A DNA stretch of 64,000 nucleotides. Source: an uncultured virus (IMG/VR IMGVR_UViG_3300034071_000245). Its lineage: Duplodnaviria; Heunggongvirae; Uroviricota; Caudoviricetes. Made by a program: the position numbers and the translations under genes. The notes under the pieces were generated by a model. It made no database searches. It was not told the DNA's origin and saw only the letters and a list, made by a program, of their open reading frames with translations. Each line of letters opens with the position of its first letter. Within the stretch, counting starts at the first letter, position 1. The stretch lies in IMG/VR virus record IMGVR_UViG_3300034071_000245, one strand, 5' to 3'. Shown here in pieces: positions 49,160 through 64,000 of this stretch.

Positions 49160-49337
49160 TCAGGATAATCTCCAAGAAGTATTCTGTTTCTTCGTTTGGC
49201 AGATAACTTAGACCATTCTCCCTTTCATATATTTCAATCTGTGAAACTCTCACACCGTCATACTTATAGAAGACTTCGTATTGTCCATCGACCCAAGCTT
49301 TTAGGATATCAGATGCGTTTCCCTCTAGTGTTTTCAT
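49152..49337 (-). CDS. Hypothetical protein
   Basis: ORF track; overlaps gp59 end and downstream gene start. Confidence 0.55.
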   Translation of the reverse strand: MKTLEGNASDILKAWVDGQYEVFYKYDGVRVSQIEIYERENGLSYLPNEETEYFLEIILNE

Positions 49338-49926
49338 CGACCTTCTCCTTCAGTATGTGTTTGAATTTCTCCTTATCATACTTTAGAAATGGTCTATACT
49401 TTTTCACCTTGAGTGAAACCTTAGGCCAAATCACATCATTGTCATAGTATTTATCAAACTTATCAGCATATCCTGTGAAGTCATTTAGAATTGTCATCGT
49501 CTCAATTGAGATTGACTTGCGTAGAAATAGAATCACAATATCTGGATATCTATCATTACTCACATTGAAGGACACTCTCGGATCATCTTCTTTGAAGACC
49601 TTTTGTATGTCATCGGCAAAGAGATAAGACAAACTCTGTCTCCGTCTTGTATAGGCAGTATGAACATCATTTGCTTCTTCGCTTGCAAACTCTAATATGT
49701 AATGCTTGTCATCTAGAAGATTGGCAACATAGTGATCACGCAATTCTTCTGCATTGTATTCTTTGGCTAGTTTCTCATAGAACCATTTGTCATTTCGTTT
49801 TAGATATGACTCCTTGTTTGCACGGAGTTTACCGTTCATTTGAAAGAAGTCATACTTTTGACTGGTGAAATGAGTCCTAAGTGCCAAGAATAGCAAATAG
49901 GACCCATAGCCTGTGAAATGTTTCAT
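49309..49926 (-). CDS. gp59: Helicase loader
   Basis: Y.LFLALRTHF...KYDFF..NGK......Y.KRND..F.EKL; ISIET..IL; KKY.PFL; near gp32 and gp33. Confidence 0.9.
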   Translation of the reverse strand: MKHFTGYGSYLLFLALRTHFTSQKYDFFQMNGKLRANKESYLKRNDKWFYEKLAKEYNAEELRDHYVANLLDDKHYILEFASEEANDVHTAYTRRRQSLSYLFADDIQKVFKEDDPRVSFNVSNDRYPDIVILFLRKSISIETMTILNDFTGYADKFDKYYDNDVIWPKVSLKVKKYRPFLKYDKEKFKHILKEKVDENTRGKRI

Positions 49927-50759
49927 CGAGTCTGTAGGTAAGGATCAATGTTCATTACTTCATCAACGGTCTGTGCTACGAAACCTTGGGACTGCTGCTG
50001 CATTGGAGGAAGACCATATGAGTCTAACATCTTGGCTGCCATTTCTTCTTTTATCTTATTATAAGAATCCTTGATCATATCAGATGTGAGACCTCTTAGA
50101 TTTGAATACGGCTCATTAGGTGTTTCTAACACCCAACCTTCATTGAGGAACTTGTTCTTACGGTATATCTGATTTGGGTGTTCAAGTTGTTTATGGTTCC
50201 ACTTGAGGACCTTATTCTTGATACAGTCAAAGGTCTCACGGTTGATATAGAGTTTATCCTCTAGAGGATCATATGACACCTTGCAATGCTTATAATCAAA
50301 GTGTGCTAGTAGTTCCTCACGAGTCTGATACTTGGTGAGAATATACTGTGCCTGCGTTCTATGATTATTGATCACATCAACAATGTTTGTATTGTGCATA
50401 TAAGACATCATTTCGGAACGTGACCATTCCGTGTCTGCAAAAGGAACATCATCAAAGATTGAATTGATAGGTGTGATAGGATTGTAGGCGGCCGCCATTG
50501 CCTTTTTCGCCGCTTCTTCTCTTTCACTCTGCTTCTTGAAACCTTCTGTCAGGTGGTTATAAACACCAACATCATTATTCAATACAAAGATATCAATGTC
50601 CTTGAACTTAATATTCTTTAGGACATTTGTAAAGAATCCACCAGCAATCACAACATTATTGCCATACAGACCCGATAAGAGATTTCGTGTTTTGATTAGA
50701 GATTTGATTGCTCTTTTGGATTCTTCAATATCATACTTTTCATTATCACTAAACATCAT
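49923..50759 (-). CDS. Pol-beta superfamily nucleotidyltransferase (CCA/polyA-polymerase-head-like)
   Basis: VVIAGG...KDIDIF catalytic motif; FDYKHC downstream. Confidence 0.65.
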   Translation of the reverse strand: MMFSDNEKYDIEESKRAIKSLIKTRNLLSGLYGNNVVIAGGFFTNVLKNIKFKDIDIFVLNNDVGVYNHLTEGFKKQSEREEAAKKAMAAAYNPITPINSIFDDVPFADTEWSRSEMMSYMHNTNIVDVINNHRTQAQYILTKYQTREELLAHFDYKHCKVSYDPLEDKLYINRETFDCIKNKVLKWNHKQLEHPNQIYRKNKFLNEGWVLETPNEPYSNLRGLTSDMIKDSYNKIKEEMAAKMLDSYGLPPMQQQSQGFVAQTVDEVMNIDPYLQTR

Positions 50760-50768
50760 GTCACCATA

Positions 50769-50993
50769 TTAAAGAGGGAGTTGGGAGGTATCCGATTTCT
50801 TGAGGAAGTGTAGATTTTCGGCTTCTAGTTTGATTTTGGATTTAAGAACACCAGAGACTAACTTAGCGGCTACTTCTACCTCAAAACCGTTTTCGTCGCA
50901 ATACATACAGATTGCATCGATATAAGGTATGTCTTTCATATAGACCATTTCTTCAATGGCCATAGAAAAGCGATTGATATCTTCGGCGTTCAT
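50769..50993 (-). CDS. gp33: Late transcription coactivator; start revised to MNAED
   Basis: FS..IE..V......YIDAI..YC.E...EVE..AKL.S..LK.KI..EA..L.FLK. Confidence 0.9.
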   Translation of the reverse strand: MNAEDINRFSMAIEEMVYMKDIPYIDAICMYCDENGFEVEVAAKLVSGVLKSKIKLEAENLHFLKKSDTSQLPL

Positions 50994-51184
50994 ACAAACA
51001 TACCAAAGATGCCAGAGAGAAGGGAGATTGTGATAGCAGAGGCGATAGTGATTTCGATTACTCCTGTTGCCCAATAACCAAGAATAGAACCTAGAAACAA
51101 ACCAGCGAAGGCACAGATATAGACATTGGTGCTTAGAGCAAAGTTAAACTCACGCATACCAGTGTATTTGTCTTTCTCACTCAT
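50990..51184 (-). CDS. Small two-TM membrane protein
   Basis: Two hydrophobic segments; AAGGA RBS. Confidence 0.6.
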   Translation of the reverse strand: MSEKDKYTGMREFNFALSTNVYICAFAGLFLGSILGYWATGVIEITIASAITISLLSGIFGMFV

Positions 51185-51199
51185 AATATAATCCTTTCA

Positions 51200-51355
51200 T
51201 GAAAGCGGGCCCGTTCTGTTTCGAGGTGGAGCCCATACCCAAAGGATTACGCTGCTAGAGCGAAAGCCTCATATGCATTGTTGTCGTTTGCATTTACGAT
51301 TTGCTTTCGATCTCCTTACGACCTTACTGAATCCTGTCGAACCTGAATCCGGCCC
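51200..51355 (-). ncRNA. ssrA: tmRNA coding piece (permuted two-piece ssrA); tag ANDNNAYEAFALAA* at 51291-51247
   Basis: Starts GGGCCGGATTCAGGTTCGACAGG (tRNA-like 5' arm); resume context GTAAAT-GCA AAC GAC AAC; tag ends ALAA-TAA; 3' ACCTCGAAACAGAAC resembles the alphaproteobacterial motif. 3' boundary approximate. Confidence 0.92.
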
Positions 51356-51356
51356 A

Positions 51357-51791
51357 TCATAAAGAAACATGAGGATTGGTTTTCTTCATTACAGATTTCA
51401 ATCTGCCTCTCCACCATCCTACAGGATGTTCATTCAAAGAAAACTGACCTTCAGCGTAGCCATCATTGAACCAATATCTTTGAGTTCTAATCTTACGACC
51501 ATCAGTTCCCGTAGGATACTTTCTCTCTTTCTTTGAATGGTTTGCCCATCTAAGAGTGTTCGTAAGTTCTGCTCCTTTTTTGGCGCCTTCATTGATTGCG
51601 ATAAAAGAACATTCATCGGAAGTTAGTAATCCCAACAAACCTTTCCAAGCAATCAAATCTTGCCAGTGTCCATGTTCCTCATATAGTTTCTTATGCGCTT
51701 CGGCATGTTCCTCTATAGTGAGTTCAACGATATTTTCTGGTTCATCATTCCCACCCATATGTTTAGGAATGATATGGTGCTTATGTTTCAT
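51357..51791 (-). CDS. HNH homing endonuclease (Mob-like) inside the tmRNA intervening segment
   Basis: HKHHIIPKHMGG.D...N.VELT.EEH.EAH..L motif; C-terminal W.NDG..E......P.GW.RGR putative DNA-binding motif. Confidence 0.88.
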   Translation of the reverse strand: MKHKHHIIPKHMGGNDEPENIVELTIEEHAEAHKKLYEEHGHWQDLIAWKGLLGLLTSDECSFIAINEGAKKGAELTNTLRWANHSKKERKYPTGTDGRKIRTQRYWFNDGYAEGQFSLNEHPVGWWRGRLKSVMKKTNPHVSL

Positions 51792-51801
51792 AATAATCTC
51801 C

Positions 51802-51829
51802 TGTCGATATTACTATTTATAAATCGACA
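51802..51829 (-). promoter_or_regulatory. Late promoter TATAAATA (51814-51821) in the loop of a hairpin abutting the HNH RBS
   Basis: Minus strand TGTCGAT-ttataaatagtaat-ATCGACA-GGAG-attatt-ATG. Confidence 0.75.
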
Positions 51830-51847
51830 AGTTTTCACATTTCCTTA

Positions 51848-51915
51848 TGGTGGACCGGGTGGGAACTGCCCCCACGTCCAAGAAGCCTATATTCCGTCTC
51901 TCAACGATCTAAGCA
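51848..51915 (-). ncRNA. ssrA: tmRNA acceptor piece (T-arm, acceptor 3' strand and encoded CCA)
   Basis: GACGTGGGGGCAGTTCCCACCCGGTCCACCA; CCGGTCC pairs with GGGCCGG at 51355 giving G3:U70; discriminator A; non-canonical GGCAGTT T-loop. 5' boundary approximate. Confidence 0.9.
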
Positions 51916-51918
51916 TAT

Positions 51919-51949
51919 TATTTATAACATACGGTGAGTTTTTTGTCAA
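51919..51949 (-). promoter_or_regulatory. Composite promoter for tmRNA: TTGACA-17-(TGn)TATAAA overlapping late box TATAAATA
   Basis: -35 at 51944-51949; -10 / late box at 51919-51926. Confidence 0.8.
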
Positions 51950-51951
51950 GA

Positions 51952-52266
51952 CTAAAGTGGTGCAAAAGTTTTATTATGTCCGTCTATTGATAGAGTTATG
52001 GAACGGACATAGCCACACTCTTTGGTTCCAGGAATGGAGAACTCACCGCTACCATGCCTGTGAAATGAAGGAGCATTACACTCACCACCATTAATACTAG
52101 CCAACGAAACATCAATCACCTTCTTCGCTTTACAGTGGATGATATGACTATCACTAACTTTCTTTTCACATGAAACATCTTCTGACGCCAATGCTGGTGT
52201 GTTACTCAGTATCAAGAGTATTTTCAAAATCCTCAATGAGAGGGACCGGGGGTTCTTTAGTTGCAT
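51952..52266 (-). CDS. Putative exported Cys-containing protein (true start likely downstream)
   Basis: Signal-like ILLILSNTPALA then four Cys. Confidence 0.5.
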   Translation of the reverse strand: MQLKNPRSLSLRILKILLILSNTPALASEDVSCEKKVSDSHIIHCKAKKVIDVSLASINGGECNAPSFHRHGSGEFSIPGTKECGYVRSITLSIDGHNKTFAPL

Positions 52267-52376
52267 GGCTTACTAGTCGTGTCCCGTATAATGCACTCAC
52301 CGACGGTCGCCACCAGACAACCAGACAAGCCCAAACTAAGAAACACCAATGCGATTGCTAGATATACTTTCTTCAT
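52257..52376 (-). CDS. Small lipoprotein (39 aa)
   Basis: Manual ORF MKKVYLAIALVFLSLGLSG-CLVATVGECIIRDTTSKPCN; lipobox LSGC; GGAGG RBS; ATGA overlap. Confidence 0.7.
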   Translation of the reverse strand: MKKVYLAIALVFLSLGLSGCLVATVGECIIRDTTSKPCN

Positions 52377-52576
52377 TTGAATACCTCCCAAAACTGGTTC
52401 ATTGCCTTTTCGTAACCGGCAATCATTTCTTTTGCTTCTTTTAATGTATCACACATCTTCAATAGTTTGACACCTTGCGGATCATTTTCCATATACGCAA
52501 ATTGACCTGTATATGTCATTGCACAGACCACCTTACGATCATCGGAATGAAAAACTGTATCGCTCAACCGTTTCAT
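52373..52576 (-). CDS. Hypothetical protein
   Basis: ORF track; ATGA coupling on both sides. Confidence 0.6.
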   Translation of the reverse strand: MKRLSDTVFHSDDRKVVCAMTYTGQFAYMENDPQGVKLLKMCDTLKEAKEMIAGYEKAMNQFWEVFK

Positions 52577-52701
52577 TTATACACCCTTTCTACATGTCCA
52601 CATCGTTTACATCGTTTCCAATGATCTATAGGATTGCTCTTAAGAAAAGGTTCAACCCTATAATAGTTATGACCAAAGATTTTGCAAAACCATTTTATCA
52701 T
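52573..52701 (-). CDS. Small zinc-binding protein (DUF1660-like, 42 aa)
   Basis: Manual ORF MIKWFCKIFGHNY...RCKRCGHVE. Confidence 0.65.
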   Translation of the reverse strand: MIKWFCKIFGHNYYRVEPFLKSNPIDHWKRCKRCGHVERVYK

Positions 52702-52840
52702 TCAAATCTTTCTTTGCTTCTTTTGTTCGCTCCTTATCTCTAAGGTCTCGAACGACACAACATTTACATGATAAGAGTTTATACTTTTTGCCTTTGAGGT
52801 TAGTCTGACCCGCTACGTTTCCAATATGCAAAGATTTCAT
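52667..52840 (-). CDS. Small basic hypothetical protein (57 aa)
   Basis: Manual ORF MKSLHIGNVAGQTNLKGKKYKLLSCKCC...; ATGA overlap with the exonuclease. Confidence 0.55.
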   Translation of the reverse strand: MKSLHIGNVAGQTNLKGKKYKLLSCKCCVVRDLRDKERTKEAKKDLNDKMVLQNLWS

Positions 52841-53514
52841 ATTGCAGTTTCCTCTCTAAACTGTTTCACCTTTCGTGCTAACTCTGGAATATAATCCCTG
52901 CGATTGCGCACGAACACTTGAGGTGATTCGTGATCGACGGAGATTAATACCACAATTTGCTTGCACTGGATGCCTGTCATTTCTTCATACATCAAAGAGT
53001 AACAGGTACATTGTTCAAAGTAGTTTAGAATCCATTCTTCCTTCTTAGGCTTTAAAGATGTTTTAAAGTCAATAATAGAAGGGACGCCATCAAACTCGGC
53101 AATACAATCCACCTGACCAGCAAGACCAAGAATTTCACTATAAAGCATAGTTTCCAAGTAATGGACATTATCAATCCTGTCAATAGTAGGTCTGATATCC
53201 AGAAATGCATGTTGCATGTCTGGCATTACATCTTCTTCGGTGAGAAACCCTTTCTCGTTAGATATATAAGATTCCATAAGAGAATGGAATTTTGTACCTC
53301 GGCGGCTTGCTCGTGCCGAGATTTTGTTCGCTTCTTCTTCGCCGACTTTCTTTCTCCACTTTTGGATCGAGTCACCTTTGAAATGAGATAGAAAAGTAGT
53401 AACCGACGGGAGTTTAACACCATTTGGCGAGACATAATATCGTTTTCCATTATATTCTTCTCTTTTCAGATTCACTAACACTGGGTCATTGTTTATATGT
53501 GTAAATGTTTTCAA
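52837..53514 (-). CDS. PD-(D/E)XK exonuclease (Cas4/RecB-like, T4-like phage type)
   Basis: R.Y.SP.G..LPSVTT; RGT.FH...E; AGQVDCIAEFDG..SIIDFKTS; YF.Q...Y. Confidence 0.9.
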   Translation of the reverse strand: MKTFTHINNDPVLVNLKREEYNGKRYYVSPNGVKLPSVTTFLSHFKGDSIQKWRKKVGEEEANKISARASRRGTKFHSLMESYISNEKGFLTEEDVMPDMQHAFLDIRPTIDRIDNVHYLETMLYSEILGLAGQVDCIAEFDGVPSIIDFKTSLKPKKEEWILNYFEQCTCYSLMYEEMTGIQCKQIVVLISVDHESPQVFVRNRRDYIPELARKVKQFREETAI

Positions 53515-53774
53515 CAGCCTACATCTTGATCTTCTTCATGGTGCTTGGCCCAATTGCCAAAAAATCCACTTGCATATCTAAAGTCACCCGCACGTGCCTT
53601 CTTTAGATATTCATCTACAGAAAGAGCGACATATGATCTATCTGAGTTTGACACGACTTTCTTTGTCGTAGTGCGAAAGACATGACCAAGGTAATCAAGA
53701 GATTGTTCCTTGGTCAGATTTGATTTATTTAGTTCGGCGATTAGAAGATTGATGTTATTTTCCACAGTGTTCAT
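53511..53774 (-). CDS. Hypothetical protein
   Basis: ORF track; GAGG RBS. Confidence 0.6.
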   Translation of the reverse strand: MNTVENNINLLIAELNKSNLTKEQSLDYLGHVFRTTTKKVVSNSDRSYVALSVDEYLKKARAGDFRYASGFFGNWAKHHEEDQDVGC

Positions 53775-53866
53775 AACAATACCTCACATCATTTGGTGGT
53801 GAATTTCGGCCTATTAGCGGATGGTTTCCTTGGATTAAATTCCGTTTGGAATGGAGCATCTTTTAC

Positions 53867-53895
53867 ATTATATGCGGTTTTACCAACATTGTCAA
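53867..53895 (-). promoter_or_regulatory. Consensus sigma70 promoter TTGACA-17-TATAAT
   Basis: Exact consensus hexamers with a 17-nt spacer. Confidence 0.85.
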
Positions 53896-53899
53896 CCTT

Positions 53900-54472
53900 T
53901 TAACTTATTGTTTGATAAGCACCGGAGAGATCAAAATGACTTGTGTTTGATGTCGCTCCAACTGGTGTGGTATTTTTCCAGGCCAAATCTGTGGTACTAC
54001 CTGAATAGTAGAGTTTCATAACTGTGTTGCTTGTGTCTATATCAGTGATACCAGCAATATGATATTTGGCATCACCATTTGCTTGATGTAATGTACCGGC
54101 TCTAACCGTTATTGTTGCGACAGAAGGCGCTGGCAAAACAATCTGATACTGCCCACCAACATTGAAAGATGCGGCATTACAATTAGCAAAATCTACATTA
54201 ATTCTAAAGTGTGTAATAAGACCTTGCTTTACATAAGACCCTGTAGTAACTACACCAGGAACGTTGGCACCATTTGCTGTAAATTGAGGATCAAAAGTTT
54301 GATTGATAGAAAGTATACTAAAAGGAATACCACCAGGAGTCTCTCCATCCGAAAGTCGGAGAGGTGTCTGACCATCTGTATCATAGAATATTTCACCGGG
54401 TCTTCCGATGTATTCGGTGGCCTGGGTTCCGCCCATATGGGCAGCGAACATTTTGAAGGTAACATTTGACAT
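53900..54472 (-). CDS. Late-expressed fibre/decoration-like protein (Mtd/hyaluronidase N-terminal-like motif)
   Basis: G..GEIFYDTD....LRLSDG.TPGG; TATAAATA at 54501-54508 and AGGAG RBS upstream. Confidence 0.6.
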   Translation of the reverse strand: MSNVTFKMFAAHMGGTQATEYIGRPGEIFYDTDGQTPLRLSDGETPGGIPFSILSINQTFDPQFTANGANVPGVVTTGSYVKQGLITHFRINVDFANCNAASFNVGGQYQIVLPAPSVATITVRAGTLHQANGDAKYHIAGITDIDTSNTVMKLYYSGSTTDLAWKNTTPVGATSNTSHFDLSGAYQTIS

Positions 54473-54522
54473 TGTAGAAACTCCTGGTGTAATTTACTTC
54501 TATTTATATAACATGTAAACTA

Positions 54523-55239
54523 TCATAGTCCCATTTCAGTTTTTTGAATGATATATTCTTTAACTGTACCAGAACGAACAATGTCTTCAATACCAAATTC
54601 GATATGGTCGAATGATGACATACGGCGAGTTATTGCCATCAGTTCTCTAATACCAGTCTTGTCATGTGGTTTGTGTAGATCACTCTGACGGTAATCACCA
54701 CAAAAGACGATACGAGAGTTGGTACCTATACGGGTCATAACAGTATCGATTTCTTGGAAGTTCATGTTGTTACATTCGTCAACGATGATAATGGAATCAT
54801 TGAAGGTCGTACCACGGAGGAACGATGTAGTGGTGAACTCGACCATTCTTTTCATCTTTAGTATCTTCCAACCATCACCACGACCAAATAGATCGTCACA
54901 AATTTCCTGATAGGGTTGTTCGTAAACTTCCGCTTTCTGTTTTTCCGAACCGGGCAAGAAGCCCATGTCTCTTGATGGAACTACCGAACGGATGATAACG
55001 ACCCTCTTATATGTCTCCTCGATTAGCACCTCCCTTAGTGCAAGATATGATGATAGAAAAGTTTTACCGGTGCCGGCATAACCATGTAGCATGAGATTTG
55101 AACCGGCTTCGTAGGCGTCCCATACTCTCTGTTGATTGACAGTGAGTGGCTTAATGTGACGAAGTTCGAAGTGGTTTCTCTCAGCCTGATTTTGAGGCTG
55201 ATGCTGTTGTTGGTTATTTCTTTTCGACTTTCTTGACAT
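54523..55239 (-). CDS. phoH: PhoH-family ATPase; start revised to MSRKSK
   Basis: KPLT.NQ; GYAGTGKTFL; RS.V..R.MGFLPG; FLRG.TF..S.IIVDE.NN; TRIG..SR..FCGD..QSDL; DIVRSG. Confidence 0.95.
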   Translation of the reverse strand: MSRKSKRNNQQQHQPQNQAERNHFELRHIKPLTVNQQRVWDAYEAGSNLMLHGYAGTGKTFLSSYLALREVLIEETYKRVVIIRSVVPSRDMGFLPGSEKQKAEVYEQPYQEICDDLFGRGDGWKILKMKRMVEFTTTSFLRGTTFNDSIIIVDECNNMNFQEIDTVMTRIGTNSRIVFCGDYRQSDLHKPHDKTGIRELMAITRRMSSFDHIEFGIEDIVRSGTVKEYIIQKTEMGL

Positions 55240-55277
55240 ATATTTTACCTTATTGTTATCGTTATTCACATCTCCAT

Positions 55278-55317
55278 AAACAAAAGAGGTCGATGCCTTT
55301 TTACGGGCACGACCTCT
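55278..55317 (-). terminator. Terminator-like hairpin upstream of phoH
   Basis: AGAGGTCG-TGCC-cgtaaaaa-GGCA-t-CGACCTCT followed by TTTGTTT. Confidence 0.6.
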
Positions 55318-55348
55318 AAACTTTTTACTGTGATGTTCTGTTGTCAGG

Positions 55349-55612
55349 TTAAATCTCCTTGGGAATGTCCCAACGCTTGCTTGCAACGGCAGATGCCTCT
55401 GGCACAGCGGACTTGATTCGACCGAGAACATACTTTTGAAAATCTGCTGGCGGCTTTGTGATACCGACATTCACCGGATCAACCATTGTAAAGTTGCGTA
55501 GCACTTGACGAAGTTGGGGATTATTCTTTTCAAACTCATCACGCTCGGCAATGGTCATTGTGTTGGTGAACTCCTCACCAGTCTCTTTATTTTCCCATGT
55601 GTAATTAGGCAT
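55349..55612 (-). CDS. FmdB-like small protein lacking Cys, paralog 1
   Basis: MPNYTWENKETGEEF...MTIAERDEF.K.NP. Confidence 0.7.
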   Translation of the reverse strand: MPNYTWENKETGEEFTNTMTIAERDEFEKNNPQLRQVLRNFTMVDPVNVGITKPPADFQKYVLGRIKSAVPEASAVASKRWDIPKEI

Positions 55613-55805
55613 CAACATTGTCCTTTGGATCATAAAATTTATTGTTGTTTATTCCACCGTTCATGTTAGCACCGAGAAACATAGGTGCTGATAACAGTTT
55701 TTCTAGTTCAGGATGGTTTGTTAGAAACTCATCCAGTTCGGAGACAGACATGAAAACATCAAATGTCTCCCCGGTTTGCTTATCACGAAACGAATAAGTT
55801 GGCAT
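55605..55805 (-). CDS. FmdB-like small protein lacking Cys, paralog 2
   Basis: MPTYSFRDKQTGETF...MSVSELDEFL..HP. Confidence 0.7.
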   Translation of the reverse strand: MPTYSFRDKQTGETFDVFMSVSELDEFLTNHPELEKLLSAPMFLGANMNGGINNNKFYDPKDNVDA

Positions 55806-55807
55806 TG

Positions 55808-56353
55808 TTACTCCATAATCCAGTCTGGTGCGGTAGCTGGCGCTTTCCATGAATGAAGGTGTGCCTTGCCTACCTTGTAGTAGTTGCGATAGTTCACAAC
55901 TGCGTCTTCCGATATGATGTATTTAGCATCCATGGCACTTGGAGGTTGTGTCTTATAGCCAACAGGAATGTTATTTGGCAGAGCAGCGAGGATGCCTTTA
56001 AGACCGCTTTCTTCGATCTTATGTACCTTGCCATAACGGCGAGTGTATTCACGACAATGCTCATCTAGATAACACCACAGCCAGTTGTAGTTGTTATTGG
56101 ACTCACGAGCCCAAACGGCCGACGGGTGATTGATATGCGTGGCAGAATACAAAGAAGTCTCACGACTATCAGATAAACGCCATCTTTTGACACTCCGACC
56201 GGTCTTCGTTTTGTCGGTATATTGAACGCCGTCAATAACACGGTGAGCAGTAGAAAGCAACTGTGCAGCCTCAAGAATCATCTTGACGACATGACGATCA
56301 ACAGCCCACTGGGCGCACATTTTAGGATCAGAGTGAATATAAAAGATATTCAT
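55808..56353 (-). CDS. Pyrimidine-dimer DNA glycosylase / endonuclease V family protein
   Basis: MNIFY...DP..CA....DRHVVKMILE.AQLLSTAH; TH.NHPS.VW.R; EYT.RYGK.H; YR.YY. Confidence 0.8.
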   Translation of the reverse strand: MNIFYIHSDPKMCAQWAVDRHVVKMILEAAQLLSTAHRVIDGVQYTDKTKTGRSVKRWRLSDSRETSLYSATHINHPSAVWARESNNNYNWLWCYLDEHCREYTRRYGKVHKIEESGLKGILAALPNNIPVGYKTQPPSAMDAKYIISEDAVVNYRNYYKVGKAHLHSWKAPATAPDWIME

Positions 56354-56568
56354 CTTACGATACATCCTTTTAGGTCGGAGAGTAAACCATTTAGAACAGC
56401 CCGTGTAAAGGCATCTTCGTTACCATTTAAAAGATTGTGAAGGTTCATGGCATAATAGGCTGCATTATCACCACGAATGAACACGCCGGGCCAGTCATCA
56501 CCAATCTGGGTCGGACCGGTCTCTACTCGTTTGTCAAGTTCAACATCAATTTTACGAATCTCAGGCAT
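56350..56568 (-). CDS. Hypothetical protein
   Basis: RVETG..Q.GDDWPGVFIRGDNA..Y motif; coupled ORF. Confidence 0.65.
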   Translation of the reverse strand: MPEIRKIDVELDKRVETGPTQIGDDWPGVFIRGDNAAYYAMNLHNLLNGNEDAFTRAVLNGLLSDLKGCIVR

Positions 56569-56953
56569 AACGATCCTTTAGAAAGTTTTCCATGTAGTGA
56601 CGGATATTTGCCGCACCGATAGGATTGGCACTGTGAACATTATACGAGAAGCCATCTAGGTTGTCAACATTCTCCATGATCCAATCGCACAGCCACTTGG
56701 CGAAGTCATACCCGGTAAACTCACGAGGCGCACCAGTGCGAGGTGCACCGTCCATATACTCGTCCATAGGACCGTATGCAGACTCCAGATTGTAATGAAC
56801 ATCTGCAAGGTCATGATCGAACGATACATGATACGGAAGACCATAGTTCTTCACATACCAAACAGCATCATGATAGTTCCGTGCCAGGCGCCAATCTGAA
56901 TCAAGATCAGGCAGATTGCGCAGGTCATCCAGATAGAGTTTATACATCATCAT
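56561..56953 (-). CDS. Cyclic-phosphate-processing receiver (cREC) domain protein
   Basis: LYLDD.R; SFDHDL; TGYDFAKWL; VHSANP.GA.NI. Confidence 0.8.
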   Translation of the reverse strand: MMMYKLYLDDLRNLPDLDSDWRLARNYHDAVWYVKNYGLPYHVSFDHDLADVHYNLESAYGPMDEYMDGAPRTGAPREFTGYDFAKWLCDWIMENVDNLDGFSYNVHSANPIGAANIRHYMENFLKDRYA

Positions 56954-57098
56954 AAAACATATCCCAGTAACCTTGATCCCAATAATTGGCGAGAGCGAGA
57001 CTTACACCATCGTATGGATTATCCACTAGATTGATGCCATCTTCAAAATAAGCCTCACAACCTTCATTGTAGGCAATTTGTTTTAGTTCGTCGGTCAT
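56940..57098 (-). CDS. Rmf/CrpP-like small protein (52 aa)
   Basis: Manual ORF MTDELKQIAYNEGCEAYFEDGINLVDNPYDGVSLALANYWDQGYWDMFYDDV; AY.EG..A...G...NPY...W..GY pattern; ATGA overlap with the ligase. Confidence 0.55.
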   Translation of the reverse strand: MTDELKQIAYNEGCEAYFEDGINLVDNPYDGVSLALANYWDQGYWDMFYDDV

Positions 57099-58213
57099 AG
57101 GTCTCTCTTACCTTTCCAGAAAGCAACGACAACGGGGAAGCGGAGTTTGCCGTCTTCCGTTTTGTTCTGATACCGTACCGTTACGCTTGTATAACCATAA
57201 TCATTATACAATAGGTCTTTAAGGAAGTCAAACTTCCCACGCACTCCTGCAAACTGTGTGGTTCCGTCTTTCAAACGGATTTCAATCCGCTTGACAGCAC
57301 CTGCCCAATTGCCTTTACCTTCTTCCATAGAAACGATTTCAAATTCATCGTCCTCAAATTCCTTATGCTTGATAAGGTTCTTTGAACGCTTACCTTCATA
57401 AAGAGAGTCAGGAACACGAAGCATTTGACCTTCATATCCTTCTTCAAGGTTCCAAGAAAGATTTTCCATAATTTGTTCTTCGCTTTCTGCAATTGTAGAT
57501 TCTACAAAACGGATACATGGAGAAGGATGATCTTCCAACAAAACAGCACCTAAAAATTCTTTACGGTTCATAAAAGTCCAATTGCGATCATAATCAATCA
57601 TATCATAAACATGATATTGGATCGTCTTTCTGGACTCTTCCAGATCATCAACAGTCGGTTTAGTCTTACGAGCAAGAGAAATAATCTTCTCAAAGTCGTT
57701 TTTTAGTTCATGATTATACAGTTCTCCATCAAGAACAATTTCGGGATATTCCCGAAAGAACGGTTCGAGTGCTTCATGAATATGAGGCGCAGAAAGAATA
57801 GGCTTGCCGTTGCGTGACTGCATACCGTCTTTTGATACGAGACAACGAACACCATCAAGTTTCGGCTGCGAGTAATAAGGGAACTTGTTATGCTTTGCAG
57901 GGTTATATTTGTCGGCAAGCATACACTCAACGAACTTGGCACCATTCTTAGCCCAAGTGGTAGTCTGATGATACTTGCCTTGATATTCTTTCTTTGTGAT
58001 TTCAGAAAGCACTTCTAACTCAACCTGTTCTTTCACAGTGGTTGCGTTAGCACGACCGACATTCTTGGCCTCTGGATACTTCCACCCAGAAACTACAATC
58101 TTGCCATCTTTGATGCCGGAATGAGTGCGATACTTTGTATCGTCATACTCCATCCACCACACACGGGTGTTACCTTTAGAGTCAATCTTGTAAAGTTTCT
58201 GGGTGGCTTTCAT
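57095..58213 (-). CDS. ATP-dependent DNA ligase
   Basis: QPKLDGVRC (KxDG); LDGELY; YHVYD; GYEGQMLR; RS.NL.K.K; LRFP. Confidence 0.95.
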   Translation of the reverse strand: MKATQKLYKIDSKGNTRVWWMEYDDTKYRTHSGIKDGKIVVSGWKYPEAKNVGRANATTVKEQVELEVLSEITKKEYQGKYHQTTTWAKNGAKFVECMLADKYNPAKHNKFPYYSQPKLDGVRCLVSKDGMQSRNGKPILSAPHIHEALEPFFREYPEIVLDGELYNHELKNDFEKIISLARKTKPTVDDLEESRKTIQYHVYDMIDYDRNWTFMNRKEFLGAVLLEDHPSPCIRFVESTIAESEEQIMENLSWNLEEGYEGQMLRVPDSLYEGKRSKNLIKHKEFEDDEFEIVSMEEGKGNWAGAVKRIEIRLKDGTTQFAGVRGKFDFLKDLLYNDYGYTSVTVRYQNKTEDGKLRFPVVVAFWKGKRDL

Positions 58214-58222
58214 ATTATCCTC

Positions 58223-59050
58223 TTATGGTTTCAGGACACTACGCATAAAGTCGAGACCTTTCATTTCAAGGCTCGTATCTTTTAGTTCGTGGCCGCCGTC
58301 GAATGTATAGAACTTGTGATATACACCGAGTTGATTCAACTTTGTTGCCACCATAACAGACTGTGCATAAGGCACAATATCATCTTTTGTTCCGTGTATG
58401 ATACAAGTTGGAGGGAACAAAGCGGTGACTGCATAGATGGGCGAAGCAGATTGATACAGTCCGGGGTTTTGCTCATATGTTGTATTGTTGAACAGCGGCA
58501 AAACACCAATAAGGTCTTTCATCTTTGCTCCGCCAAGGTCGCAAGGGCCGAAAACATCAAGAATGCAACTTGCACTAGGGCTAAAATTAGAATGTAAATG
58601 ACTCCTATCGCCGGGGATAGTATTAGGATTAGCACCAACCATAAGCGCCAAATGACCACCGGCAGAATCACCTCCAACTCCAATGCGATTAGGATCGATA
58701 CGAAAGTTGACAGCATTGGATCTTACCCATCTAATGGCATTTTGAACATCTTGAAACTGGGCTGGCCATTGCGTTGTCTTGTCCTCATATGTGGCAAGAC
58801 GGTAGTTTATTGCAATGACATGAAAACCGGCCAGAGCATAGCGTCTAGCACGGCCCTCGTATGCGGATTTATCACCAGCAGACCAACCACCACCGTGGAT
58901 AAACACAACCACAGGACGAACCCCTCGATTAAGGAGATAGAGGTCAGCGGTCTCCGATTTCGACACACCATATGGGATATCCTTATAAACTGTCCAGTTG
59001 GGTTTGATGATGTTAGAGAAGTATGGAAGAATGTAGTTAAGTGGGTTCAT
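58223..59050 (-). CDS. Alpha/beta hydrolase (HSL-family esterase/lipase)
   Basis: HGGGW oxyanion motif; NYRLA; GDSAGGHL; HGTKDDIVP; GGH. Confidence 0.92.
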   Translation of the reverse strand: MNPLNYILPYFSNIIKPNWTVYKDIPYGVSKSETADLYLLNRGVRPVVVFIHGGGWSAGDKSAYEGRARRYALAGFHVIAINYRLATYEDKTTQWPAQFQDVQNAIRWVRSNAVNFRIDPNRIGVGGDSAGGHLALMVGANPNTIPGDRSHLHSNFSPSASCILDVFGPCDLGGAKMKDLIGVLPLFNNTTYEQNPGLYQSASPIYAVTALFPPTCIIHGTKDDIVPYAQSVMVATKLNQLGVYHKFYTFDGGHELKDTSLEMKGLDFMRSVLKP

Positions 59051-59072
59051 GATTGACTCCTTTCAATCTTAT

Positions 59073-59444
59073 CTAGCAATCCTCCGATAAGATTTCACGG
59101 CCAACATCAGGACCCCAATTTACTTCCTTGCTTACCTGATCTTCCCGATGTTTAACACTATCGAAGATAAAACGCAACTTGTTTTCTGTTGGCCAGAAAC
59201 TTAGATAAGCGTTTTCACGATCAAATAGTTCCAGATATTCTTTCTCCGTGATAACACGATGGGAAAAGATATCTTCCGCAATATGATTCTGTGATACTTC
59301 TTCTAGTTTGTCTTGATAAGTTCCGGCTGTAATAGCGTCGGTCACATCATCAAGAGCATAATCATTTGGCTCACTATCAGGTAGTCGCACAACATATGTG
59401 TGGCGGAATGTGGAAACAGTTTCGACTAGGACAAGTTTGGACAT
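59073..59444 (-). CDS. Hypothetical protein
   Basis: ORF track; C-terminal EVNWGPDVGREI. Confidence 0.65.
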   Translation of the reverse strand: MSKLVLVETVSTFRHTYVVRLPDSEPNDYALDDVTDAITAGTYQDKLEEVSQNHIAEDIFSHRVITEKEYLELFDRENAYLSFWPTENKLRFIFDSVKHREDQVSKEVNWGPDVGREILSEDC

Positions 59445-59448
59445 TATA

Positions 59449-59655
59449 TCAACTCCGTTCGATTAAGTCAAGTAGATTAGTTAGGAAACGTTCCTCTTGA
59501 CTACACTGACCGACAATACCTTCCCACACAGGATCAATCTTTGCAGTCTGGGCAAAATCATGTTTGATACGCCGCAGATCGGCTAGTCTATTATAAATCT
59601 TTTCTTTGATTTCGATTAGTGCCACATCGGCGCTTTTAGTTAGAAACTCTGTCAT
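59449..59655 (-). CDS. Hypothetical protein
   Basis: ORF track; coupled. Confidence 0.6.
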   Translation of the reverse strand: MTEFLTKSADVALIEIKEKIYNRLADLRRIKHDFAQTAKIDPVWEGIVGQCSQEERFLTNLLDLIERS

Positions 59656-60068
59656 TCTACCACCTCTAGTTTATCTTTATTTACTTTCAATGTCACTTTC
59701 TTAGCAGCATTGATATCACCACTCAATTTCGTATAGTCACGACCACCATCAATAGCAACTGGGCCGCACTCCCGATAATCGTGACGATAACGAGAATAAT
59801 ATACATCATCACCAATCTGAATGCCCTCGAAAGGTTCAGTGGCAGAGATACCATTGGTGATCATAAACTGTTCACCATTATTATACAAGGCAAAGTAGTT
59901 TGAACCCTGCGGGTGTGCTTCTTCTGTATAAAAGATAGCAGCAGGAAAGTTGGCCCAGCCATGCTTGCCTTTGATACAAGACTCCATAACGAATGTAGCC
60001 TTATACATATTCTCAACCTTAGCAATGCCATCAGGCTTTAGAAAGGTGCATTCATTATGGATTTTCAT
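59652..60068 (-). CDS. Conserved phage hypothetical protein
   Basis: YSRYRHDYREC..VAIDGGRDY motif. Confidence 0.7.
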   Translation of the reverse strand: MKIHNECTFLKPDGIAKVENMYKATFVMESCIKGKHGWANFPAAIFYTEEAHPQGSNYFALYNNGEQFMITNGISATEPFEGIQIGDDVYYSRYRHDYRECGPVAIDGGRDYTKLSGDINAAKKVTLKVNKDKLEVVE

Positions 60069-60277
60069 TACTCACCTTTCAGGTTCAGATCGACATTGTT
60101 ATTGCGGAAGTTATCAGTCATAACATTATATTTGAAACAAGCCTGACTTTTCATGTCACCACTATTCACACAATCCATTTTCAACTGAAAATCATACCAA
60201 GCGCCAAATATAATGCAGCCGAACATGACCGCAAAAAGAAGGCAGAGGAAGGCGAAGAACCAATCAAAGTGACGCAT
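60068..60277 (-). CDS. Small membrane protein
   Basis: Single TM segment then C..C. Confidence 0.6.
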   Translation of the reverse strand: MRHFDWFFAFLCLLFAVMFGCIIFGAWYDFQLKMDCVNSGDMKSQACFKYNVMTDNFRNNNVDLNLKGE

Positions 60278-60623
60278 TTTTAACTCCGTCTATATGAGAA
60301 CAGTGATTGCGATATTTGTATGCCGTGCAGGTGCATGAATAACGATTCAGCGGACCCGCAGTTACGACATATTTGCTATCCACGATTTTAACATTATCAC
60401 TAACATTTGACCTGTCGACCCATGCTTGGATAATGTTTCGCTTATCAAGTATGCGGACCGGTGCATCCATATCTCCAGTTGTTAGAAAGAACTCATTCTC
60501 GGATAGCCATGATTGACGAGGCACTACCCAGCCCATATATACTACTTCTTTGGGGTAACGGTAAGTTGCTATGTGTGGATAGTCACACATAGCACTTCGA
60601 TATTTTAATTTTAGATACGCCAT
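60264..60623 (-). CDS. SWIM zinc-finger protein
   Basis: YSCTC.AY.YR..CSHI. Confidence 0.75.
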   Translation of the reverse strand: MAYLKLKYRSAMCDYPHIATYRYPKEVVYMGWVVPRQSWLSENEFFLTTGDMDAPVRILDKRNIIQAWVDRSNVSDNVKIVDSKYVVTAGPLNRYSCTCTAYKYRNHCSHIDGVKNASL

Positions 60624-60637
60624 ATGGCACTCCGAAA

Positions 60638-61225
60638 TTAAATGCCAAGAGCCTTGAGGTCAAGGCCTTCAATCGAGTCCCAATCACGATCAATGTTGAA
60701 CGAAGTGCCAACTTCACCGCTAGTGCCGAAAGTCTCGGTCACATCGTCAAATTCACGGACATTCTTGGGCTTGAACTTAGCACCGACTGCCTTGAGCTTT
60801 GCAAGGTTAGCTGCCTTGATATCAGCAACGGACTTTTTAGCAGCGACCTTCTTAGGAGCAGCCGCAGCAGCCTTCTTAGCAGCAAATTCCTTGCTGGTCT
60901 TTGCGACAATCGTAGAAAGCTTAACAGTCTTTTGCTTGGGAGCCTTAGCAGCCTTCGGAGCAGCAGCCTTACGGGCAGCGCCGTGGACAGTGTTACGAAT
61001 AGCCTCAGCGTTAGAGGGTTCAGCGATTAGCGTATAAGACGCAACCTGGCGACCGTCTTTTTGCTTAGTGATGGTAAAGCCAAGCTTGCCGAGGTACCAG
61101 ACATGCTTAGACGCATAATCGCCATCGCCGACATGAGCATTAATCTCGGCCGGGGTAACGGGAACATTCATCTTGATAACCTGAAGGACCTTGACAACAG
61201 TAGGAGAGATAGTCAGATTTGCCAT
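60638..61225 (-). CDS. Putative DNA-binding protein: winged-helix-like N-terminus, Ala/Lys-rich H1-like linker, acidic tail
   Basis: KAAAPKAAKAPK...AAKKAAAAAPKKVAAKK; own early promoter. Confidence 0.6.
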   Translation of the reverse strand: MANLTISPTVVKVLQVIKMNVPVTPAEINAHVGDGDYASKHVWYLGKLGFTITKQKDGRQVASYTLIAEPSNAEAIRNTVHGAARKAAAPKAAKAPKQKTVKLSTIVAKTSKEFAAKKAAAAAPKKVAAKKSVADIKAANLAKLKAVGAKFKPKNVREFDDVTETFGTSGEVGTSFNIDRDWDSIEGLDLKALGI

Positions 61226-61257
61226 AGTTAAGACCTCGCTTTTTTGATTTATGCTCT

Positions 61258-61324
61258 ATTATAGGACAGTTTGGGACCCCTTGCAAGGGAAAAATGCCCG
61301 AAAAAGTGCGACATGATGACGCAC
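61258..61324 (-). promoter_or_regulatory. Early promoter TTGCAA-17-TATAAT with upstream palindrome GTGCGTCA-N3-TGTCGCAC
   Basis: -10 at 61258-63, -35 at 61281-86, palindrome at 61306-61324. Confidence 0.7.
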
Positions 61325-61331
61325 CCCTAGT

Positions 61332-61553
61332 CTATCGATTAGGTAGACTATTCAAGGCTTGGACTGGGCCATACCGGTCGTCCATGTCATAATACAGGGA
61401 ATCGATAATCCCCCCGACCATGTCACGGTCGACCTTGAGAGCGGACCGGGCGTTTACATACTCGACCACATCGCCGAGATAATAAGCGCCAGCTTCAATA
61501 GCATCGCCCACGAGTTCCACGATTTCGGTATAAGCATCAGACATGCGAGACAT
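61332..61553 (-). CDS. Hypothetical early protein
   Basis: GGAGGA RBS. Confidence 0.65.
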   Translation of the reverse strand: MSRMSDAYTEIVELVGDAIEAGAYYLGDVVEYVNARSALKVDRDMVGGIIDSLYYDMDDRYGPVQALNSLPNR

Positions 61554-61569
61554 ATTATTCCTCCTTCAA

Positions 61570-61779
61570 TCAGCAATCGGGGTCAAAATCATGCCACTCC
61601 TGCATTTCATCAGGCTGGCCATCATAATCATCTTCCCCGTCCTCGTCAGACAGATTGACGTCATAAAACTCTTCCACATCGGACTCGCTCATCCAGCAGA
61701 GCAATTCACGGATAAGAGTATCACGATCCAGCATACCTTCATCGACCATTTCGATGATCTTATTCGTATAAGAGCGCAT
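61570..61779 (-). CDS. Acidic hypothetical early protein
   Basis: Ends DGQPDEMQEWHDFDPDC; GGAG RBS. Confidence 0.65.
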   Translation of the reverse strand: MRSYTNKIIEMVDEGMLDRDTLIRELLCWMSESDVEEFYDVNLSDEDGEDDYDGQPDEMQEWHDFDPDC

Positions 61780-61903
61780 TATATTATTCTCCCAAACTTA
61801 GATATGATCATAGTCACGATAAGAGCGGCGAACAAAAAGGCGACCGTAGCCCATTCAGGAAAGAATGCATAAGCTGGCCAGCCTTTGGGGATTACGATTG
61901 TCA

Positions 61904-62137
61904 TTAGGCGTTCCAACCCATCCAGTCTTCAATCTGATTCTGTGACACTTCAACAGCCACAGCACCATCAAGCCACTTGTTGATATGCTTTGAGGTAGTG
62001 CGAGAGAATTTAGTGGAGGTGCGATAAAACTTGCCTTTGACATAAGCAGCAACAGGCGTCTTATATGAAACGAGAAAGGCATTCTCGCCATGACGGATTT
62101 CAATCTGATTTGAACCGATAGAAGCAGCACGAAGCAT
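61904..62137 (-). CDS. Conserved phage hypothetical early protein
   Basis: LVSY.TPVAA...FSRTTSKHINKW motif; AAGGA RBS. Confidence 0.7.
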   Translation of the reverse strand: MLRAASIGSNQIEIRHGENAFLVSYKTPVAAYVKGKFYRTSTKFSRTTSKHINKWLDGAVAVEVSQNQIEDWMGWNA

Positions 62138-62165
62138 TTAATTTCCTTTCCTCATTGTTGAACAT

Positions 62166-62233
62166 ATCATAGGACATATTCCGTCAAGAGTCAATAGGAA
62201 AACGACTAAAAGAGGTGTGACAGATTGTCGCAC
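62166..62233 (-). promoter_or_regulatory. Early promoter TTGACT-17-TATGAT with upstream palindrome GTGCGACA-N3-TGTCACAC
   Basis: -10 at 62166-71, -35 at 62189-94, palindrome at 62215-62233. Confidence 0.7.
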
Positions 62234-62382
62234 CCCTTATGGCCACGCTTACGGTCGTATTTGACCTTGGACTTGACTATTCGTTGCCTGAATTGCCCAT
62301 TTTTGAGCGCAAAAGCCACGGGGTTGGCAGCACCGGTGGTGCGTTTGCCCCGCTGGCTCGTGGTACCCCCGCTTTTTGACAT
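62206..62382 (-). CDS. ArfA-like alternative ribosome rescue factor candidate (58 aa)
   Basis: Manual ORF MSKSGGTTSQRGKRTTGAANPVAFALKNGQFRQRIVKSKVKYDRKRGHKGCDNLSHLF; GAGGAG RBS 7 nt upstream; N....L....FRQR..K.K..Y.RK..H as in ArfA. Confidence 0.6.
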   Translation of the reverse strand: MSKSGGTTSQRGKRTTGAANPVAFALKNGQFRQRIVKSKVKYDRKRGHKGCDNLSHLF

Positions 62383-62471
62383 ATCGACGCTCCTCGGTCG
62401 TTGGTATGGCCCAGTCCAAGATCGACTTAAGCTGGGCCATATTCTATATGGTTAAGTTCAAGGTGAAGGGA

Positions 62472-63695
62472 TTAACCCTTCACATTTAGCACCTGACGGA
62501 GACGATGCACGATTTCCACAAGGTCATCCTGTGCAGCCATGACCGCACCAATGTCCTTGTAGGCAGCCGGTGACTCGTCAATTACATCAGCGTCCTTACG
62601 GCATTCGATACCCTCGGTCGCCTTGATATGATCATCCAGCGTGATTGCCTTACGAGCCGCATTGCGGGACATACGACGACCAGCACCATGAGAACACGAA
62701 CAAAACGAATCCTGGTTACCAAGACCACGGACAATGAACGAACCCGTACCCATCGAACCCGGGATAATACCCAGATCGTCCTTACGGGCACGAACCGCAC
62801 CCTTACGGGTCACCCACACATTCTTGCCAAAGTGGTTCTCCTTAGCAATATAGTTGTGGTGACAGTTCACAGCCTTTTCATCAGAAACAACGAAAGCCGG
62901 TAAACGCTCACGAAGAACCTTTAGCACGGCATCCATCATTAACTGACGGTTAAGAGCAGCAAACTCCTGTGCCCAAGATACAGCCTCTACATAATCATCG
63001 AACAGTTCCGTATGTTCTACAAGATAGGACAAGTCCTGATCCGGTAGATACGGCAGGATATGATAGCGTTCCATTTCACGCTTTGCAGCATCAATGAAAT
63101 ACTGACCAATCTTGTTACCTACACCACGGGACCCGGAGTGCAGCATTACCCACACATAGTCATCCTCATCAAGACACAGTTCGATAAAGTGGTTGCCCGT
63201 TCCCAGGGTACCCAGGAACTCAACATCCTTATGGGACTTGATCTTCGGGTGCTTCTCAACGATCTTCGCATAGCGATCCGCCAGAATGTTCCATGCACCA
63301 GCAACATTCAGCGGCATATCAAGCCAGGTACCACGATCATTCTTACCACCGTTGTCGGTACGACCATGCGGAACCACGGACTCGATATGAGAACGCAGCG
63401 AGTGAAGGTTGTCCGGTAGATCGTTCGCCGTCAATGACAGACGAACAGCCATCATACCACAACCGATATCAACACCAACAGCAGCCGGCACAACTGCACC
63501 AACCGTCGGAATAACCGACCCAACCGTTGCACCCTTGCCAAGATGGACGTCCGGCATAACAGCAACATGGCCCGCAATAAACGGGAGTGACGCAATGTTA
63601 TCTAACTGGGTACGAGCATCAGCCTCGACCTCAACACCCTCGCACCACATCTTTAAACGCCCACCACGAGCGCCATCCACATACTGATATGCCAT
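62472..63695 (-). CDS. rtcB: RNA 2',3'-cyclic phosphate ligase RtcB
   Basis: MPDVHLGKG.TVG; GVDIGCG; GTLGTGNHFIE; HSGSRG; HHNY; RKGA; PGSMG; SHGAGR; DESP.AYK. Confidence 0.97.
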   Translation of the reverse strand: MAYQYVDGARGGRLKMWCEGVEVEADARTQLDNIASLPFIAGHVAVMPDVHLGKGATVGSVIPTVGAVVPAAVGVDIGCGMMAVRLSLTANDLPDNLHSLRSHIESVVPHGRTDNGGKNDRGTWLDMPLNVAGAWNILADRYAKIVEKHPKIKSHKDVEFLGTLGTGNHFIELCLDEDDYVWVMLHSGSRGVGNKIGQYFIDAAKREMERYHILPYLPDQDLSYLVEHTELFDDYVEAVSWAQEFAALNRQLMMDAVLKVLRERLPAFVVSDEKAVNCHHNYIAKENHFGKNVWVTRKGAVRARKDDLGIIPGSMGTGSFIVRGLGNQDSFCSCSHGAGRRMSRNAARKAITLDDHIKATEGIECRKDADVIDESPAAYKDIGAVMAAQDDLVEIVHRLRQVLNVKG

Positions 63696-63710
63696 TTAAT
63701 TTCTCCTTGT

Positions 63711-63893: not shown

Positions 63894-64000
63894 TACCGAA
63901 CCTCCACACAATTGCCACTATAACCAGACTTAAGAAGGTAGTAATTTATATAGCGTTTAACAGCTACTCTGGAAATGCCTCGAAAGACAATATCCTTATT

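Follow-up and report, generated by a model that had tools for sequence, protein, structure and literature searches.

A putative HNH homing endonuclease gene in the spacer of a two-piece tmRNA gene of a T4-like phage, and the separate distribution of the RNA-repair and ribosome-rescue genes around it

In a stretch of 64,000 nucleotides (the window) from an uncultured Caudoviricetes virus (IMG/VR record IMGVR_UViG_3300034071_000245), which is contained in a 74,497-base record of a T4-like phage, seven genes were initially annotated as a dispersed toolkit for RNA repair and ribosome rescue, namely a nucleotidyltransferase (NTase), a transfer-messenger RNA (tmRNA), PhoH, a cREC domain protein, an RMF-like open reading frame (ORF), an ArfA-like ORF and RtcB. 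The locus raises the question whether these genes form one system, and how an HNH endonuclease gene comes to lie within one of them, the tmRNA gene. In the reading that we consider quite probable, the toolkit consists of core and accessory genes that are distributed separately, and the HNH gene is likely a free-standing homing endonuclease gene that would do no harm in the tmRNA spacer because the tRNA-processing enzymes of the host are predicted to excise this spacer without ligation.

The tmRNA gene was located at 51204-51953 on the minus strand by the Rfam models RF04321 (62.5 bits; gathering score, 47) and RF01849 (51.4 bits). The tmRNA scores with the alphaproteobacterial model, and ARAGORN called no tmRNA in the window. 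The initial annotation was correct in naming a tmRNA, which is present in the two-piece form above the Rfam gathering score, and had overlooked its permutation and the HNH gene in its spacer. The acceptor piece is encoded first and is followed by a 492-nt spacer and the coding piece; the acceptor stem consists of 7 bp with G3.U70, the CCA is encoded, and the tag frame (51291-51247) encodes ANDNNAYEAFALAA, an open frame that ends in Ala-Ala. Folding of the full precursor (z -4.1 against 20 shuffles) gave the T-arm, the acceptor stem and a closing stem between the ends of the spacer. The predicted promoter of the gene consists of a sigma70-type -35 element (51949-51944), a 17-bp spacer and a -10 element that overlaps the T4 late promoter consensus TATAAATA (51926-51919). 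RNase P takes part in the cutting of permuted tmRNA precursors. As described in sections of PMC11915505, tRNA-processing enzymes cleave such precursors and leave two pieces that are base-paired with each other, and removal of the spacer, alanylation and tagging are likewise predicted for the tmRNA of the window.

The HNH ORF and its 56-nt leader occupy the entire spacer, the stop codon of the ORF lies 1 nt ahead of the coding piece, and its last codons constitute the 3' strand of the closing stem. The nesting of the gene in the spacer, the paired spacer ends and the two intact tmRNA pieces are all seen directly in the window. The protein matched an HNH domain in the PDB (E 1.6e-5), and its match to Pfam HNH (E 0.003) was under the cut-off. 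The leader was folded into a hairpin of -11.9 kcal/mol (z -3.75) whose loop carries TATAAATA and whose 3' arm takes in part of the ribosome-binding site (RBS), and the value was -0.7 for a transcript begun after the motif. Of the four occurrences of TATAAATA on the minus strand of the window, two are at the tmRNA/HNH locus.

For comparison, relatives of the HNH protein were taken from viral records (80 of 189) and metagenomes (80 of 492), giving 160 loci, designated by L numbers, with 127 distinct proteins. Sixteen proteins were placed in a tmRNA spacer, 15 were divergently adjacent to a tmRNA, 6 were just upstream, 10 were further off and 76 had no tmRNA nearby; for the other 4 the acceptor piece alone was seen, and inspection by eye assigned 3 of them to the spacer and found 1 truncated. 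Altogether 19 distinct complete in-spacer proteins, including that of the window, and 1 further truncated protein were obtained, and 21 of the 127 were encoded directly beside a two-piece tmRNA. The Rfam tmRNA matches span the HNH gene in L124-L130 and L137. The strict HNH motif was retained in 16 of the 19 in-spacer alleles, among them the window, and a late-promoter-like motif was found in the leader hairpin of 16 (TATAAATA in 12 and CTAAATA in 4). The ends of the spacers paired with each other at -11.1 kcal/mol, compared with -3.5 kcal/mol for ends of mismatched alleles (sd 2.5). Strong purifying selection on the in-spacer genes is indicated by a dN of 0.22-0.24 against a dS of 1.7-1.8 between the window and the two nearest alleles, and dN was well under dS for all pairs with at least 62% identity. 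On a quick tree of 80 columns, from which L152 and L292 were left out as too short, the in-spacer domains were clustered (6 changes, compared with 18.8 after shuffling) beside the divergently adjacent group. In the bacterial genomes of GTDB 6 HNH relatives were found and none was called in-spacer, and among cultured phages N-terminal HNH matches were obtained in 11 cyanophage records only.

Related genes were also noted at other positions. The 15 proteins of the sister group (L136, L139-L142, L146, L148, L167, L293, L299 and others) are encoded about 95 bases from a two-piece tmRNA in head-to-head orientation. In the close relatives L208, L209, L221, L222 and L270 related HNH domains occur elsewhere in this region, at one site directly ahead of phoH and at another that separates RtcB from the ArfA-like gene.

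Two other arrangements were considered and rejected. No intron family was found around the HNH ORF in the Rfam scan, and the ORF with its leader fills the spacer, so a group I intron was dismissed. A non-stop switch was considered because an HNH frame that enters the coding piece would give a non-stop message after processing; it was rejected as a general mechanism, since the frame enters the coding piece (by 13-40 nt) in just 7 of the 19 alleles, the stop codon being placed 1 nt before the coding piece in 9 alleles, including the window, and 4-12 nt before it in 3.

To compare carriers with empty sites, 130 unique, fully called two-piece tmRNAs were collected over all loci, comprising 19 carriers (with L294, whose protein is the same as that of L135, and without L288) and 111 empty alleles, a biased set picked via a tag pattern and PhoH; the alleles are related to each other. 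All 130 have G3.U70, of which G3 was demanded by the filter. The spacers measured 419-642 nt in the carriers and 11-410 nt (median, 79 nt) in the empty alleles. One empty spacer of 410 nt, with neither HNH gene nor long ORF, belongs to an unannotated two-piece tmRNA of a cultured phage (Sinorhizobium phage Phosso, PV764938.1; L121:5509-5918). In L008, L019, L088, L102 and L220, whose spacers (108-242 nt) were counted as empty, the spacer appears to contain a short ORF with an RBS that bears no relation to HNH, and the spacer of two-piece tmRNAs may therefore host other cargo besides HNH genes.

The HNH gene is optional at this site, which is mostly empty in close relatives. The mature pieces of the empty allele L057 are 99% identical to those of the window over 144 columns. 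The carrier state requires 14 changes along the tmRNA tree, in which gains and losses are not separable, and at least 5 of these changes are forced by well-supported branches. The window, L125 and L295 carry differing HNH subtypes at the same site within one phage group. In the carrier L125/L227 both outer flanks match the window, and outside the tRNA-like domain the coding piece shows 88% identity, whereas the two tRNA-like halves are only 60% and 32% identical and best match a different tmRNA type, that of L098. We read this swapped tRNA-like domain as a putative co-conversion tract.

A pointer to the target site was obtained from the acceptor stem, since that of the window (GGGCCGG/CCGGTCC) shows compensated swaps at pairs 4 and 6 relative to the stem GGGGGCG/CGCCTCC, which 10 of the 11 closest empty allele types have in common. 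Among all alleles compared, 54 of the 111 empty ones and 2 of the 18 carriers had this common stem, samples so biased and related that Fisher values overstate the significance. The target of the HNH protein may include one strand of the common acceptor stem, and empty alleles of the L057 type, which have the stem of the window, would be resistant to it. Alternatively, the spacer may be merely a tolerant landing site, at which a common phage HNH endonuclease that cuts elsewhere arrived by chance. Such an origin would suit the 76 relatives without a nearby tmRNA and the unrelated short ORFs in other spacers, and according to passages of PMC2988022 the cleavage site of a free-standing T4 endonuclease can be hundreds to thousands of bases away from its gene. 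Against it, about 40 of the 127 relatives are in or directly beside a tmRNA and are clustered on the tree, and sequence change is concentrated in the tRNA-like halves that flank the insert; we regard a chance arrival as unlikely.

Under the preferred reading of a homing endonuclease, the following steps are proposed. Early transcripts would hold the RBS of the HNH gene in the leader hairpin, and transcription from the late promoter in the loop would free it. In a mixed infection the HNH protein would nick or cut an empty tmRNA allele in the acceptor-stem sequence that adjoins the spacer, or close to it, and repair would copy the HNH gene and, with it, the two halves of the tRNA-like domain that flank it. 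In the permuted gene one acceptor-stem strand precedes the spacer and the other follows it, so that the copy would carry a matched stem; the new allele would then have a self-consistent acceptor stem and resist re-cutting, so that immunity would be gained without cost to the RNA.

Several observations weigh against this reading. Cleavage and homing by the HNH protein, its expression and the processing of the tmRNA are predictions made from sequence. A Foldseek search with the HNH model gave no match at E<=0.001, with HNH nucleases among the top rows. Three of the 19 carriers have no hairpin, their leaders being too short, and the stem formed with the own partner was strictly the best in just 11 of the 19 alleles. 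The empty type of L057, L256 and L259 has the acceptor stem of the window, so the change is not exclusive to carriers, and two carriers retain the common stem. In-spacer HNH genes may have had a single origin on the HNH tree, on the tmRNA tree carriers show some clustering (a value as low was reached in 2 of 500 shuffles), and no decayed HNH relics were found in the 36 empty spacers of at least 100 nt. The clustering on both trees and the lack of relics, together with the strong purifying selection and the frequency of the target-like stem sequence in two-piece tmRNAs, would also fit an HNH gene that has been domesticated, is co-expressed with the tmRNA, attacks DNA of the host or a competitor (e.g. 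host ssrA or a co-infecting phage) on behalf of the phage, and is inherited mostly vertically. Such a gene is difficult to reconcile with its absence from most close relatives, with the different subtypes at one site in the phage group of the window, L125 and L295, and with a control hairpin like that of known selfish endonucleases; marker exclusion itself results from homing. Domestication is judged improbable.

The homing endonuclease reading was then set against known systems. The free-standing T4 genes mobE and segB resemble the gene of the window in that they are intron-less endonuclease genes with an N-terminal HNH and a variable C-terminal region, and in that, as in I-TevI, a late promoter is placed so that late transcripts evade an RBS-sequestering hairpin, an arrangement described for all three in passages of PMC2988022; segB resembles it further in being located among tRNA genes (PMC2988022). 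Unlike these free-standing genes, the HNH gene of the window lies within one RNA gene, between the strands of the acceptor stem, in a segment that is predicted to be processed. The two-piece tmRNA of phage Melnitz (RF04321/RF01849) shares with that of the window the permuted order, G3.U70, a tag ending in ALAA and a position upstream of the gene for the late-transcription coactivator (gp33), and differs from it in its spacer, which in the window has 492 nt and a protein gene, whereas the Melnitz passages of PMC9004378 name no spacer endonuclease. A homing endonuclease gene of the LAGLIDADG type also lies inside a tmRNA gene where a group I intron interrupts the T-loop; unlike the spacer of the window, these introns are self-splicing and occur in one-piece tmRNAs (PMC11915505). 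In the relevant sections of the same source, a tRNA or a repeat is reported from permuted-gene spacers, and endonucleases are reported only from the T-loop introns. No endonuclease in the spacer of a two-piece tmRNA was reported in the literature searched, whose coverage did not extend to subscription papers. Protein-coding intervening sequences of bacterial 23S rRNA are comparable in that an ORF lies in a stem-closed segment that is excised from a structural RNA without ligation. They differ in that the segment is removed by RNase III and not by tRNA processing, and in that the ORF does not encode an HNH nuclease.

We lean slightly towards a broader proposal, in which the spacer provides a third way, besides introns and inteins, for a homing endonuclease to reside inside an essential gene. 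An HNH family would target the tRNA-like domain, hide in the discarded spacer, encode one strand of the processing stem and carry both acceptor-stem strands for immunity, and would thereby drive a compensated turnover of acceptor stems in aquatic T4-like phages.

The genes around the tmRNA were examined in the same window, which contains baseplate and tail genes followed by gp32, gp59, gp33, an exonuclease, PhoH and DNA ligase. The proteins across this region are 100% identical to those of G001, a 174-kb record rated 100% complete, and the best matches of gp32 (about 51%) were to cyanophages and marine viruses. The coordinates of all features are given in Table 1.

Table 1. Features of the tmRNA/HNH locus and of the initially annotated toolkit in the window
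Feature	Coordinates	Strand	Basis
Predicted tmRNA promoter	51919..51949	-	Sequence and motif scan; present in relatives; putative function
Acceptor piece: T-arm, acceptor-stem 3' strand, encoded CCA ending 51848; 5' end not mapped	51848..51910	-	RF04321/RF01849, fold
Intervening segment, 492 nt	51356..51847	-	Ends pair as 13-bp closing stem extending acceptor stem
Leader hairpin: TATAAATA (51821-51814) at loop, RBS (51802-51798) partly in 3' arm	51798..51831	-	Fold
HNH endonuclease gene, 144 aa, HNH motif intact	51357..51791	-	phrog_655 homing endonuclease, E 7e-13
Coding piece, 5' acceptor strand with G3.U70	51204..51355	-	Rfam, sequence
Nucleotidyltransferase, CCA-enzyme-like head, nearest family Gad2 (PF26128)	49923..50759	-	phrog_1614 E 5e-9, Foldseek, Atlas
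PhoH, likely start 55236 (ORF scan reaches 55470)	54523..55236	-	PF02562
cREC domain protein, accessory	56561..56953	-	PF20274, 72 bits
RMF-family-like acidic ORF, 52 aa	56940..57098	-	PF04957 below cut-off, family search
Basic 58-aa ORF between ArfA and DUF7230	62206..62382	-	Profile search via relatives
RtcB RNA ligase	62472..63695	-	PF01139 426 bits, catalytic motifs present

Several of the initially named genes were recovered by profile searches. RtcB matched PF01139 over its full length above the cut-off and keeps its catalytic motifs; PhoH and the cREC domain passed the Pfam cut-offs, and the NTase was matched by phrog_1614. The fold of the NTase is that of a CCA-adding enzyme (Foldseek E 1.4e-5, TM 0.39), and its nearest Atlas clusters are Gad2/PF26128 (features, 0.97; model TM, 0.80), so that RNA repair is only one option for its role. 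No Gad2 match was obtained in the local Pfam scan of the NTase. Gad2 is a predicted nucleotidyltransferase that blocks Gabija, according to parts of 10.1101/2023.05.01.538930; compared with it the NTase is shorter (278 aa vs 400 aa) and has CCA-adding enzymes as its fold matches in the PDB, and inhibition of Gabija by the NTase would be putative.

The RMF-like and ArfA-like ORFs were upheld in part. RMF is a basic, rRNA-binding protein, and it is a hibernation factor, not a rescue factor. A family link of the window ORF to RMF is possible, as 11 of 15 family members matched Pfam RMF at E<=0.1 (best E 9.5e-8), whereas the ORF itself scored 16.9 bits against PF04957 (cut-off, 27.9), and no RMF match was obtained in the PDB. 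With 1 Lys/Arg and 12 Asp/Glu (pI 4.05; pI about 4 in all 15 members), the ORF does not offer the basic rRNA-binding surface expected of RMF. For the ArfA-like ORF no direct ArfA match was obtained in Pfam (PF03889), NCBIfam, the PDB or a genome search. A transitive link was established with a profile of 11 ArfA-like sequences, which reached the relative L377 at E 4e-5 and also L376; L377 passes the ArfA cut-off (35.5 vs 25.5 bits) and matches ArfA in the PDB, and L376 passes that of DUF7230. The gene in L377 (1498-1644; G007) is a bona fide ArfA in a 173-kb phage with a two-piece tmRNA and bridges ArfA to the DUF7230-like phage peptides; annotated phage ArfA genes exist already. In a by-eye alignment the window ORF resembles ArfA (PF03889) and DUF7230 (PF23876) in being short and basic and in keeping the F-R-Q-R that in ArfA recruits RF2 (part of PMC8012679). 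Unlike ArfA, it has no direct match to the profile hidden Markov model (HMM); GKGS is missing from it, and Phe occupies the position equivalent to Ala18. The description 'ArfA-related' appears fair for it.

Genes of the toolkit were counted in 24 records, of which 9 are at least 90% complete. The absence of smpB, seen initially in the window, extended to G001 and the 23 other records (0/24), and Rnl/Pnk, RlaP and Pth were not found among the scanned ORFs of 47794-63911. In the 9 near-complete genomes, one of which is the same phage as the window and 6 of which were chosen through PhoH, the counts were PhoH 9, tmRNA 8, ArfA-like 7 (one at E 0.009), NTase 4, RtcB 2, RMF-like 2, cREC 1 and SmpB 0. 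PhoH loci were compared for 80 of the 87 found; among these, 8 non-identical RtcB loci had cREC in 2 and RMF-like in 6. Of the 39 loci from ligase to denV, 9 held cREC without RMF-like, 16 RMF-like without cREC, 2 both genes and 12 neither of them, and of the 28 loci that extend from gp33 to gp59, 17 contained the NTase. About 25 other ORFs are interspersed among the seven genes, the lack of contiguity having been conceded in the initial annotation. That annotation had also named an independent distribution of the genes as an outcome that would speak against its system-level claim, and such a distribution was found on the genomic side, with RtcB, cREC, RMF-like and NTase patchy compared with the tmRNA (8/9). 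In the small sample of 9 near-complete genomes the toolkit combines near-core genes with accessory ones, all within a variable region, and these are not linked or co-inherited.

It had been proposed that the seven genes are a coordinated countermeasure to host RNase-based abortive defences. In its favour, RtcB, cREC, PhoH and the tmRNA are genuine, the 4 records that have RtcB show it adjoining the ArfA-like slot, one relative encodes a bona fide ArfA, and roles of this type are proposed in parts of PMC7824862; RtcB and the RMF-like gene also share the same 2 of 9 genomes, and 6 of the 8 RtcB loci have the RMF-like gene, an overlap that is the single hint of linkage, in small numbers, and speaks against a fully separate distribution. 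The variation in gene presence from 1/9 to 9/9 genomes, the occurrence of cREC in only 2 of 8 RtcB loci and of cREC with RMF-like in 2 of 39 loci, and the acidity of the RMF-like ORF are at odds with such coordination, as are the resemblance of the NTase to an inhibitor of Gabija, which cuts DNA (10.1101/2023.05.01.538930), and several sigma70-like promoter matches (no shuffle control) that divide the region. A concerted countermeasure thus appears doubtful: each part could aid translation, and the system-level claim fails the genomic test. A translation-aiding role of phage RtcB, cREC, PhoH and CCA-type NTases is documented already in parts of PMC7824862, where they figure as accessory genes in varying combinations, as in the window, which differs from those inventories in having no operon. 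According to sections of PMC9004378, PhoH and tmRNA belong to the standard gene set of T4-like phages from aquatic habitats, and two-piece tmRNA and phoH are on record for aquatic myophages.

Other features of the window were also noted. Two tandem small phrog_385 genes (zinc-ribbon-like, annotated as transcriptional regulator), whose copy number varies in relatives, lie directly upstream of phoH (55349-55850). An alpha/beta-hydrolase esterase (58223-59050) is probably a recent gain, because among the 80 PhoH loci it is found only in records of the same phage. Very long tail-fibre-like genes of 2278, 1715 and 2031 aa occupy 8977-30130, and two of them appear to share repeated segments.

The toolkit claim adds little to the published inventories, save for the link of DUF7230-like phage peptides to ArfA. 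The tmRNAs of the carrier loci L122-L133, L135 and L137 escaped ARAGORN, and the Rfam gathering score fails to catch those of L131-L133 and L135; phage tmRNA counts are therefore likely too low. The acceptor-stem sequence provides a short, testable target prediction for the HNH endonuclease, and a permuted RNA gene could, through its spacer, offer a selfish nuclease a ready neutral site that requires neither a ribozyme nor protein splicing.

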